A DNA stretch of 64,000 nucleotides from Octopus sinensis (GCF_006345805.1 NC_043004.1:77438001-77502000), one strand, 5' to 3'; positions 11,060 to 46,810 are shown, numbered from the stretch's first letter. Numbers and translations are program-made. Notes: a model not told the origin generated them from the sequence alone.

Positions 11060-11192
11060 GGGAGAGTTTACGAAAAAAACAAAAGACGAAGACAGGTGGT
11101 GTACAAAACAAACAGATGTATTAGTATAACGCTCAGGAATTGAAAAAGTCTTTTACGTTTCGAGCCTACGCTCTTCTACAGAAAGGGACAGA
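11060..11192 (-). mobile_element. Solo PLE pseudo-LTR (family of 40600-40782) containing a hammerhead fold
   Basis: Reverse complement matches 40657-40782 and 41646-41781; embedded in (TA)n. Confidence 0.8.
11150..11185 (-). ncRNA. Minimal type-I hammerhead-like ribozyme, core CUGUAGA
   Basis: CTTT-CTGTAGA-A-GAGC(GTAG)GCTC-GAAA-CG-T-A-AAAG: stem I CTTT/AAAG, stem II GAGC/GCTC, palindromic stem III ACGT. Confidence 0.7.
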
Positions 11193-11793
11193 AAAAAATA
11201 TATATATATATATACAACGGGTTTCATTCAGTTTCCGTCTACCAAATCTGCATACATGGCTTTGGTCGACGGCCCGAAACTATAGTAGAAGACTGAACCC
11301 GGAACTTTGTGGTTGAGACGCAAACGTCTTACCACACAGCCATACTTGCGCCTGTATTTATACTTACCATTTCTATAAAACAGCCGACGCCACAAGAATG
11401 CAGAAGCAAATAGTCTGGTATTGATTACGTAACATAAATAATAATTATTGATCATCTATTTATATAATTTGTCAATTTCCATTTAGGAAACAGTGAAGAA
11501 AGCATTTATAGGTGTATTGCAAATAGTCGCGCGGCTAAATAGGAATCTGGTATGGCACGCGACGAGAATGTGGCTGGCTGCAAAAGCAAGCTATTGAGAG
11601 GTCCAAGAAGGGTGAAATGTGTCTGGCGTTCTTGCTGGTTGCTGCGGAGACAAATTTTCATCTCCCTCCGATATATATTGCGTTTTTAACACAATACGTC
11701 CATAAGAGATTTTAACTCAGGACAAATGCCACTGTGACTGACCTATCAACAGAATATACATGGAGTACGATAAATAGATGGCTATTTTATTGT

Positions 11794-12092
11794 CAGACAG
11801 ACAGACAGACTGACAGACAGACAGATAGATAGATAGATAGATAGATAGATAGATAGATAGATAGATAGATAGATAGATAGATAGATAGATAGGTAGGTAG
11901 GTAGGTAGGTAGATAGATAGATAGAGATAGATAGATAGATAGATAGATAGATAGATAGATAGATAGATAGATAGATAGATAGGTAGGTAGGTAGGTAGGT
12001 AGATAGATAGATAGATAGATAGATAGATAGATAGATAGATAGATAGATAGATAGATAGATAGATAGATAGATAGATAGATAGACAGACAGAT
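11794..12092. repeat. (GATA)n/(GACA)n/(GGTA)n microsatellite
   Basis: Seen directly. Confidence 0.98.
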
Positions 12093-12611
12093 AATAATAT
12101 TTATTGGAATACACACTCGCGCGCGTACGCACGTACACACGTACACACACACACACACACACACAAATTATCGTGGAAAATTTTCGAGTAACTAAAATAT
12201 TTGGATGTTCAGTATGATCAAAGATTAGTCTTGGTTCCATAATCTGACAACTTATTTTCAATTATTAAGTAGATTACTTCTTGCAGGTTTCTTAAAAGCA
12301 CAGAAGATATCCCGATATCGATAGTTAATCTTTAACCTAGCAGATTATTCAATTTAATAACATAATTAACCAAATATGATGAAATTTACAGAGGTAAGAT
12401 AGCCAAATATATACTTGAGGTATTAGACAACCGACACAGTGTTTGTGGTTTTGTAGAATTTCTTTGTAGTTCGCTAAGCTGTGTTACGTTGGCGCCTGAT
12501 GCAAAAAGAACAGGTGTAGGTTCCTTCTACGTAATGCCATTGAATTTAGAACTTATTTTTATGAAAGCACATATCTCTTCTACACTTCAGTTATTATGAT
12601 AGAGCAGTGTA

Positions 12612-12835
12612 AAGCGGGTAGCTGGCAGAATCGTTGTCACGCTGGTCGAAATGCTTAACGCTAATTCTTTCGGTTCTTTATGGTCTGAGTTCAAACTCCG
12701 ACAAGATCGCCTTTGCCTTTCATCCTTTCGGGGTCGATAAGATAAGCACCAGTGGAACACTAGGATTGATGCAATCGACCTACTTTTCCCTCAGTATTGC
12801 TGGCTTTGTGCTAAACTTAGAAATAATAATAATCT
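12612..12835 (+). mobile_element. SINE family B (older variant)
   Basis: tagctggcagaatcgtt head, gagttcaaactcc, ggggtcgataagataagcaccag and an (AAT)n tail. Confidence 0.8.
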
Positions 12836-12840
12836 AATAA

Positions 12841-44352: not shown

Positions 44353-45079
44353 TATTCGTTGAATATATATATATATATTATATATATATATATATATATA
44401 TATATATATATATATATTCAACGAAAAAAAATTTCAAATTATTCCGGGATATGGGGGGGTCCGGTTTCCCGCCACCCAACTACCCCTTTTCCAAACAAAA
44501 ATAAGGGGTTTGCAACATATTAGGAGGTCAGGGTACTTGATTCCTCGCAAAAAATTCGAGTTTTTTTCTTTTGTTTTTTTTAGTGAAAATCGTGCGGGTG
44601 AAAGGATCAAAATTTACCAAAAAAAATTACATATTCCTTATTTATAATTTAATGAGTTTATATTGTGCTATGGTCTATATCTTTTATATTAAAAACTATA
44701 CAAAGTGCTCAACGTGACACACTTTCCGTATTAATAGGCAGACCATCTCTCCCAATTAGTATTGTAAACAGAGGGTTTACTTTGTGTGTGTTTATGTGAG
44801 AGAGGGAGAGAGAGACTTCATTTAATTCCTCATTATCGGGACATAAGTATCTCATTATTCTTGGGTGTCCCTTTTGACTAATTATAATAGAGTAAATAGA
44901 TGTCGGGTGGTTATAAGTTCCTCGTGCAATATCATAATAACAATATTAACAATGTTCTAAATGACAACAGTATTTTAAGAATATACGTATAGCTGATATC
45001 TCAGATAAAGCTGAAATTCCTGTATCTTAATGTATTGTATACAATTTGTCGTGCCAATCTGTCTGGTGGCATCTGTAAT

Positions 45080-45319
45080 CACACCGCCGCCGTAAACAAC
45101 GGCAGTAATTTTATTCAGCTGAATACACGTCATTGATTGGTTGAAATTACCGAAATACGACTACTTTAACACGAAATAACTTTGAAAATATAAACTTTTC
45201 TCAACAACACTAAGAGTAAAAGATGTTTTATACGACACATTCTACCAATGTCCGAAGTTTGAAAGTGTTTAGTTACAAAAAATAAATTTCTCGATCTGCC
45301 GTTCAAAGGGAAAAGATCC
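45080..45319. mobile_element. Partial MITE, sister of 7280-7531
   Basis: Near-identical body; ends ctgccgttcaaagggaaaagatcc. Confidence 0.78.
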
Positions 45320-46204
45320 GTTGGTACTAAATTAGTAAATGCTTTAAATCTCCGGTCAGTTTAACAAGATACTGTATTATCTTCCGTTATTTTTTTTTCC
45401 GTTAACAAGTTGCTGAATCCCTATAGGTAATGGGAGGGGGTTATGGTCGTTCACGTAATCTAATTGGTCAGCTAATAATATATTTGAAAGGCCATAACGC
45501 TGCCATGGTTAGTTAGTGGTCAACAGATAATACAAACAAACTATATAAAAATTATATGCATGAAAACATAGAAACAAATAATTCCTATTTAACTATAGGT
45601 AGGTGTGAGAGTAAAAATTGACAGAGACTTGATTCGATTAGATTTAATTATATTCAAATAAGAATAATAGAAATAGAAATAAAAAGTTAATGAGCGTATA
45701 GGTTAGGGAATATAGTATAATAGGTTATAGTGATATGACAAGGGGATGTGATTTTTAGATTATTTATTAGAAATAAGTTAATACAAATGTATGAATGTGT
45801 GAGACCGTATATTATTAAAAATGGGAAAACGTGTATCCGTCTCGTTGTTCAATTAATCATCTAATCATTTAGGATCTTTTCCTTTTGAAAAGATCCATCA
45901 TTTATTTTTAGACTATCTATTTATTTAGTTATTTAATTTTTATTTTAGTCTTTTATTTGAGTGGGGGTACCAGCTAAGAGTAGAATGTTTATATTTCGCC
46001 ATTTTTATTTTTATCGTAACCATTTTTTCATAGTATTATTTATTATTTTAATAGTTGAAGGGAGATAACTCTTTATTCACTTTTTGAAATTAATAATATA
46101 CTTAAAACGAGCTAATTAGGTAATGAATCAATCAATTAATTGATTTAATGATAAATCAATCAACTGGTTGTGTATATGGGTTATGTATTAATACTTTCAT
46201 TCCT

Positions 46205-46600
46205 AGGCACAGGAGTGGCTGTTTGGTAAGTAGCTTGCCAACCAACCACATGGTTCCGGGTTCAGTCCCACTACGTGGCATCTTGGACAAGTGTCTTCTG
46301 CTATAGCCCCGGGCCGACCAATGCCTTGTGAGTGGATTTGGTAGACGGAAACTGAAAGAAGCCTGTCGTATATATGTATATATATATAAGTGTGTGTGAA
46401 TATGTTTGTGTGTCTGTGTTTGTTCCCCTAGCATTGCTTGACAACCGATGCTGGTGTGTTTACGTCCCCGTCACTTAGCGGTTCGGCAAAAGAGACCGAT
46501 AGAATAAGTACTGGGCTTACAAAGAATAAGTCCCGGGGTCGACTAAAGGCGGTGCTCCAGCATGGCCGCAGTCAAATGACTGAAACAAGTAAAAAGAGAA
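46205..46600 (+). mobile_element. SINE family A, full length
   Basis: ggcacaggagtggctg head through to the gactgaaacaagtaaaa tail. Confidence 0.9.
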
Positions 46601-46623
46601 AAAGAGAAAGAGAATATGTATAT

Positions 46624-46810
46624 ATTACGGAGATGTACTTGCATAGCAAGTGACCTGATCTGAGATCGTGTGCTGGAACGAAAACAATTGCAGTGTCGAA
46701 GGTGTTTATAAATACACAAAAACGGTTAGATTCACTTCAACATTTAAATTTAATTTGCCAAAATATTTTCGGCGCTTTGAGACCGCGACATGTTCGCTGA
46801 CAAAATTCCG
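46624..46810 (-). mobile_element. Solo PLE-like pseudo-LTR (third family)
   Basis: Repeat of 733-865, set in TA/CA repeats, with a hammerhead fold at 46754-46804. No ORF is attached, so the PLE assignment is inferred. Confidence 0.6.
46754..46804 (-). ncRNA. Type-I hammerhead-like ribozyme, core GCGAACA (G3:C8)
   Basis: TTTGTCA-GCGAACA-T-GTCGC(9 nt)GCGCC-GAAA-ATAT-T-T-TGGCAAA; 7-bp stem I, palindromic stem III AATATT. Confidence 0.55.

Follow-up and report, generated by a model that had tools for sequence, protein, structure and literature searches.

Hammerhead-like motifs with variant cores in the pseudo-LTRs of three Penelope-like element families of Octopus sinensis: probable slow ribozymes still under selection

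Six short motifs with the outline of a hammerhead ribozyme are found in a 64,000-nucleotide stretch of the 2.72-Gb, repeat-rich genome of Octopus sinensis (GCF_006345805.1, NC_043004.1:77438001-77502000; the window in the following), and none of them has the canonical core. The question is whether such motifs are decayed copies, ribozymes with unusual cores, or folds kept for another job. The reading proposed here, which we hold at a probability of roughly 60%, is that they are slowed-down minimal type-I hammerhead ribozymes in the pseudo-LTRs (pLTRs) of three Penelope-like element (PLE) families, A, B and C, and would still be under selection; cleavage is a prediction from sequence.

All six motifs are present at the positions and on the strands given by an earlier note on this DNA, with core position 3 at 40661, 41651 and 44258 on the plus strand and at 11181, 43292 and 46797 on the minus strand. 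The minimal type-I topology claimed there was likewise found, comprising an open stem I, a stem II hairpin, GAA, the pair A15.1-U16.1, H17 other than G, and a palindromic stem III. The palindromes of the three families are ACGU, AAUAUU and ACUC-A-GAGU. Family B limits two of that note's generalizations, since its extra nucleotide is located on the 3' side of stem II instead of forming a bulge before it, and the palindrome of its stem III, 9 nt long, is interrupted. The canonical core C3 U4 G5 A6 N7 G8 A9 is departed from by U6 in A, by G3-C8 in C and by C4 in part of B, and the motifs are therefore filed as variants and not as canonical hammerhead members. That canonical descriptors would miss these cores was expected; an Rfam covariance-model scan of the window returned no hammerhead among 119 matches at E<=10, and the cores of A and C are fixed in non-canonical form.

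The intact family A hammerhead at 41646..41683 (plus strand) belongs to the youngest subfamily. It is built from stem I UCUUU/AAAGA, the core CUGUUGA (A6U) at 41651-41657, an extra A after the core, and stem II GAGC-GUAG-GCUC, followed by GAA, the palindrome ACGU and H17=U, with the predicted cut at 41678/41679. The surrounding pseudo-LTR copy (41574..41788, plus strand) is 5'-truncated, lies between (TA)n tracts and is 99% identical to an ORF-bearing copy (L143). A second intact family A hammerhead (11149..11186, minus strand), of the subfamily with N7=A and H17=A, has the core CUGUAGA, and the pseudo-LTR copy around it reaches to about 11051. The third (40656..40693, plus strand), of an old subfamily, has the core CUGUUGA and a private A15.1->C lesion; it is part of an old 5'-truncated family A PLE (39498..40789, plus strand) with a frameshifted RT-linker-GIY-YIG ORF end (39498-40228), a C/A-rich 3' UTR and a pseudo-LTR end. 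Family B is represented by a 5'-truncated PLE on the minus strand (43115..44173), consisting of an endonuclease C-terminus (44173-44016), a TG-rich 3' UTR and a pseudo-LTR with a tail, and by an inverted pseudo-LTR on the plus strand (44170..44345). The hammerhead of the former (43230..43305, minus strand) has the core CCGAAGA (U4C) at 43292-43286 and an 8-nt deletion in stem II, while that of the latter (about 44243-44322) reads CCGAAGU, which is U4C plus a private A9->U. Family C contributes one short pseudo-LTR copy (46625..46819, minus strand), the 5' start of which is near a putative transcription start; its hammerhead (about 46735-46819) has the core GCGAACA at 46797-46791, with a private U4->C and two stem II changes. 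Four of the six window copies (at 40657, 43241, 44249 and 46754) thus carry private lesions, for which reason the family cores were taken from genome-wide copies.

Those copies were counted by exact sequence-pattern anchors over the whole genome, so that all counts are lower bounds on copy number. The anchor of family A gave 16,586 matches, the two of family B 1,334 and 3,582, and that of family C 1,118, with 0 matches for each reversed-pattern control; counts in the thousands against none in the controls argue that the motifs are not chance occurrences.

PLE clades are known by names such as Neptune and Nematis, among others. The elements behind the motifs correspond to EN+ PLEs, with a single ORF encoding a reverse transcriptase (RT) followed by a GIY-YIG endonuclease at the C-terminus, together with pseudo-LTRs (in tandem in A), inverted 5'-truncated copies and tails (inverted copies and tails in B and C). 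Near-intact relatives of family A were reached through the frameshifted ORF end at 39498-40228. One of them (L141) has a 963-aa open frame matching RVT_1 (E=1.6e-7) and, below the cutoff, GIY-YIG (E=0.0028), and in L142 and L143 the motif stands on both sides of the ORF in tandem pseudo-LTRs, identical at 347 of 350 nt. When loci were selected by the endonuclease, 25 of 30 contained the motif. For family B, near-identical long copies (95-99%) led to an RT + endonuclease ORF in frameshifted pieces (L214, L215), in which GIY-YIG was matched at E=0.024 only and the RT part was without Pfam match. Upstream extension of the family C pattern gave 836 matches and led to an RT + GIY-YIG ORF whose end lies about 1.05 kb upstream of the motif (L257, L258) and which spans 722 aa in L262; no Pfam domain was matched, but the motifs YVDD and YIGET are present and the ORF is colinearly similar to A (E=1e-6 and 4e-6). 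A and C carry a CX2-5CxxC linker, which is given for Neptune/Nematis PLEs (PMC8557442). Tandem pLTR-ORF-pLTR arrangements were not recovered for B or C. By these predicted open frames, the six motifs are traced to three PLE families, in each of which the motif is located downstream of an RT + GIY-YIG ORF, which agrees with the three distinct terminal-repeat families of the earlier note. A non-LTR retrozyme, in which non-coding units of about 170-400 nt are repeated in tandem, each bearing a canonical hammerhead of type I, was considered and rejected, the copies being dispersed, solo or inverted, and traceable to ORF-bearing PLEs.

Could the odd cores be those of canonical hammerheads that decayed after insertion, or resemblances due to chance? 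This explanation holds for the four damaged window copies, including GCGAACA, which had been taken for a family core. At the level of the families it is very improbable and is regarded as ruled out by the fixation in A, the counts in C, the tree and the subfamily linkage in B. In family A, position 6 is U in 13,499 of the 13,983 copies anchored in stems II and III and another base in 484; among the first 100 of these 484, C occurs in 68, A in 23 and G in 9 (hand count), a mix that is a decay spectrum. U6 was also found in 44 of 45 family A copies picked without reference to the motif. In a flank-only tree, for which A6 copies were picked on purpose, the canonical A6 copies of A are scattered tips inside U6 subfamilies.

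The constancy of U6 by itself is not significant, because about 70-75% of the flank columns are fixed as well, and the more telling comparison is that between hammerhead and flank. Among four A subfamilies, which were not selected via the motif, 0 of 34 constrained hammerhead columns vary, versus 45 of 157 flank columns (Fisher p=7e-5, to be taken as indicative since the subfamilies are few and related); with all 86 copies the corresponding figures are 0 of 34 and 39 of 153. Within the hammerhead, variation is confined to the two free positions: all four bases occur at N7, and H17 is U, A or C but not G in the first 45 copies of A sampled without bias and also in D copies (see below). In A, the conserved positions are precisely those at which a hammerhead is under constraint, a pattern that indicates purifying selection on the fold, the formal test referring to A. 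The youngest A subfamily has a mean pairwise divergence of 2.7%. As the sense strand of A is 68% pyrimidine (C+U), the change from A to U itself may have arisen by mutational drift. A metagenome scan with the A motif gave 0 matches in a set from which near relatives may be missing.

The origin of U6 can be approached through a sister lineage, D, which has stem II and the ACGU palindrome in common with A and whose ORF is of the same family (L315, 46-73% identity in pieces). A pattern search gave 29,540 matches, and in the first 100 of these A6 was found in 50 of 50 copies with a 3-nt loop and U6 in 50 of 50 copies with a 4-nt loop (hand count). Another register of the A core was ruled out by alignment with D. 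In a tree built from 151 flank pairs, with the ribozyme removed and microsatellite-flanked copies excluded, a starred branch (97/96) separates A from D; the tree is midpoint-rooted and its bootstrap was not settled. Since D keeps A6, A6U is likely to be derived within the A lineage. Stem covariation, which the earlier note had proposed as a check, is thin: one stem I pair is C-G in A versus G-C in D, a compensatory change in one pair by one event. At position 4, 42 D copies have U4 in 19 and C4 in 23 cases; they had been chosen for A6 and are informative for position 4 only. The A6U lineage paired with its A6 sister is the core of value of this material.

Family B is less uniform, so that the claim of a non-canonical core in each family stands for A and C only, in which the core is fixed lineage-wide. 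Among 63 B copies compared, C4 is present in 27 of 28 copies of the UGUU subfamily, whereas the CGGC subfamily has U4 in 12 of 12 (11 CU, 1 AU) and the canonical CUGAAGA in 11 of 12; an intermediate group is mixed for C4 and U4. Among the matches listed, about two thirds of the B copies have C4 and the rest are canonical. This tie of C4 to other subfamily markers (27/28 vs 0/12) again speaks against decay, and CpG decay is no explanation for C4 because the U4 subfamily keeps its neighboring CpGs. The near-identical ORF-bearing copies combine C4 with C11.1->U, and the youngest B subfamily has such extra lesions, C11.1->U and stem mismatches, which look like decay.

Family C has the core GUGAACA in 77 of the first 100 anchor matches (hand count); GCGAACA, from the privately damaged copy at 46754, is not its core. 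G3-C8 occurs in 92 of 99 copies and the canonical C3-G8 in 0 of 99, which is once more difficult to reconcile with decay. Loop II differs among the subfamilies while core and stem II are constant, as judged by inspection. One contig from a sequencing run (X19) has 13 of 14 differences outside the C core, a weak hint of G3-C8 in another organism.

In one C subfamily the copies have their 5' ends at the core or no more than about 25 nt away from it; the ends cluster at -23, and a clearly longer extension is seen in only 2 of 55 entries. In copies in which the preceding base is not the templated C (n=280), this base is G in 73 of the first 100 (hand count). The bases before the extra G are random, the starts reading G+AGAUG, and TATATAT is found at -30 in 24 of 30 long C copies. 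Copying of the cap by a reverse transcriptase adds an extra G, and a TATA element is typically located near -30 of the transcription start. Extra G, random upstream bases and TATA together suggest that the templates of the short C copies were capped, uncut RNAs. A sharp G-marked start was not seen by eye for A, B or D.

A sharp 5' end might also be an intron end, and A6U might have become fixed through overlap of the core with a 3' splice acceptor; the proposed sites are an AG-free pyrimidine tract leading to CUGUAG|AAG in A and CUAAC...CAG|AUG in C. Such a tract does precede the A core, a branch-point-like motif lies upstream of C, and in D. virilis Penelope an intron end abuts helix I (PMC4209133). 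We nevertheless consider splicing improbable: UAG occurs in the N7=A subfamily only, the sister lineage D has a similar tract and yet A6, the entire A strand is pyrimidine-rich, and the C starts, which share no exon-1 sequence, fit cap copying and not splicing. Comparison of contigs of runs X1, X9, X19 and X20 with the A pLTR and the B+C stretch revealed no splice joint, such contigs being unable to show starts, ends or absence.

On the reading as slow hammerheads, the ancestral core would have been canonical CUGANGA. A single motif without a real stem III would cut poorly; in a tandem transcript, two copies would pair through the palindrome, cut slowly after H17 and release unit-length RNA. 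Weak cores would let most of the RNA arrive uncut at reverse transcription, with which the family C copies beginning at the likely capped start are consistent. For family A, a pairing of U6 with A15.1 is predicted, as part of U4-G5-U6 : A15.1-C15.2-G16.2, which would hold the monomer in an off state. By nearest-neighbor estimates on natural copies, the mean probability of a G5:C15.2 pairing is 0.79 with U6 (12 sequences), 0.19 with A6 (5) and 0.04 with C6 (7), so that with U6 the monomer may be closed over its palindrome; in D copies a different predicted pairing would bury the palindrome. Folding of A monomers is not better than that of shuffled sequences (z -0.95 and 0.03). The minimum-energy structures from cofolding were intermolecular hybrids or two monomers and not the modelled dimer, an outcome that is uninformative about the latter. 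The 5' ends of A copies do not pile up at the predicted cut, about 10 of 100 lying at -2..+2 versus about 13 at +6..+8 (by eye), in a test that is weak because cut RNA may be degraded or ligated.

It is also conceivable, if rather unlikely, that the A motif, and perhaps that of young B, no longer cuts and that the hammerhead-like fold is retained for a different function, for example dimerization of the RNA via the palindrome or recognition by the RT/EN protein of the element. The missing 5'-end peak in A would be explained in this way, as would the loop II GUAG, which is invariant across the A subfamilies, an invariance that catalysis alone does not need; low activity is reported for A6 mutants, and Naiad PLEs proliferate without canonical hammerheads (PMC8557442). 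What argues for cutting is that N7 and H17 are the sole variable columns and that H17 avoids G, the pattern expected of cleavage chemistry, and that in family C both bases of the 3-8 pair are exchanged, so that the geometry of the active site is kept.

A wider version of the slow-hammerhead reading is offered tentatively and is, on balance, doubtful. It holds that these PLE lineages weakened their hammerheads on repeated, independent occasions (one for A6U, one for G3-C8, and U4C in two unrelated families), that selection would favor weak cleavage because the template of retrotransposition is capped, uncut RNA, and that CUGUNGA, a core regarded as unusable, would work in a natural hammerhead, with U6 as a latch keeping the monomer off until a partner arrives. 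If so, canonical searches would miss tens of thousands of such ribozymes. Cutting by PLE hammerheads is poor in vitro, and elements can spread in the absence of canonical ones, as Naiad PLEs do (PMC4209133, PMC8557442). The present families offer matched natural comparisons, namely sister lineages with a common stem II that are one core base apart (A6/U6, U4/C4) and canonical versus U4C copies of B, and these bear on whether selection favors fast, slow or no cleavage. If the A6U core is conserved and works, it would extend the catalytic core as known so far and require search descriptors to be altered; if it is conserved but dead, the fold would have a non-catalytic role.

Small dimer-cleaving PLE hammerheads were reportedly described by Lunse, Weinberg and Breaker in 2016/17. 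Diminished stem III, PLE association and dimeric cleavage would be common to these, as cited in PMC6765202, and to the present motifs. The accessible text of Cervera and De la Pena 2014 (PMC4209133) describes metazoan PLE minimal hammerheads as inactive as monomers and weak as dimers in vitro, and the likeness extends to pLTR location, type-I topology, G10.1-C11.1, a palindromic 15.2-16.2, the predicted dimer, the extra nucleotide between 9 and 10.1 (here in A and C) and thousands of solo and inverted copies. The 56-motif alignment in that text differs in having A6 in all rows and C3-G8 or U3-A8 only, with no A6U, U4C or G3-C8. No natural A6U or G3-C8 hammerhead was found in the literature searched, where A6U matched only a twister paper, and supplements outside that search could list such variants.

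Known natural core variants are A6C of phage Bcep176 and U4C of a viroid (Perreault 2011, PMC3088659; Naghdi 2020, PMC7151607), and the portions of these two papers at hand do not mention A6U. Like the changes in A and B, both are single substitutions in the U-turn, with low yet detectable activity: A6C keeps under 0.1 per min (PMC3088659) and prefers Mn2+ (PMC7151607), and viroid U4C has reduced activity in vitro (PMC3088659). The viroid change is the same as that in B and in sister lineage D, and U4C of family B is thus an already known natural variant. In a pairwise mutagenesis only the G3-C8 double mutant was rescued, other singles and doubles of the CUGA region remaining low (PMC9901934), from which it follows that A6U may be near-dead. 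The engineered C3G/G8C hammerhead (PMC9901934, PMC8495972) has the same swap as family C, with activity partly restored; whereas it is known as a laboratory mutant, the swap is natural here, in more than 1,100 copies and across subfamilies with differing loop II. In the same manner, A6C and U4C are known from rare single ribozymes, whereas here a lineage with more than 13,000 copies has A6U fixed across successive subfamilies.

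Lineage D, the sister of family A that retains A6, accounts for about half of the 29,540 matches in the genome (G000), as judged among the matches listed, and copies of it lie at loci L301-L340 and L273-L275 (G000:C1). Its hammerhead cores read CUGACGA and CCGACGA; the U4C change in the latter is separate in origin from that of family B. In one young subfamily of the lineage a GUC triplet is present, and stem I contains a U-U mismatch. At the ORF-bearing family A loci L141-L143, the sense strand is 68% pyrimidine, and the 3' UTR contains numerous TACTAAT repeats.

Short family C copies (L341-L370; window 46819) start at G+AGATG, 23 nt ahead of the core, and long copies contain a TATA-like box at -30 before this start. 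Together these features are likely a cap-copy signature marking the transcription start of a Penelope-like element (PLE). The window also contains a truncated family C pseudo-LTR without hammerhead (723-869, minus strand).

U3-A8 cores occur in two distinct motifs, UUGAAAA and UUGACAA, located at L257:-2654 and L241:-2817, with longer palindromes (ACGCGU and ACUGCAGU). Since the L257 motif lies directly 5' of family C ORF sequence, family C may have two different hammerheads. Another repeat family carries a minimal hammerhead with the canonical core CUGAUGA and the stem II GGCUG.../...CAGCC (L141:-1840, L109:+2470, L266:-4675). At least three additional PLE-like families are represented by ORF pieces (L224:-5381-6901, L267:-4254-5783, L046:+1945, L225:-876).

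Among the other repeats of the window, a SINE-like element is present in numerous copies in either orientation (46204-46600, 11215-11330, 59563-59747, 63690-64000), for which ARAGORN called no tRNA gene. A 1,479-bp tandem duplication at about 56600-59600 includes 63-64-bp repeats (families D16 and D19). A fragment of a Mariner-type transposase lies at 61619-62023 (plus strand; Pfam Transposase_1, E=3e-22). The interval 42050-42640 is transposase-like but disrupted, includes the motifs EIDES and IYSDSW, and is probably Merlin/IS1595-like.
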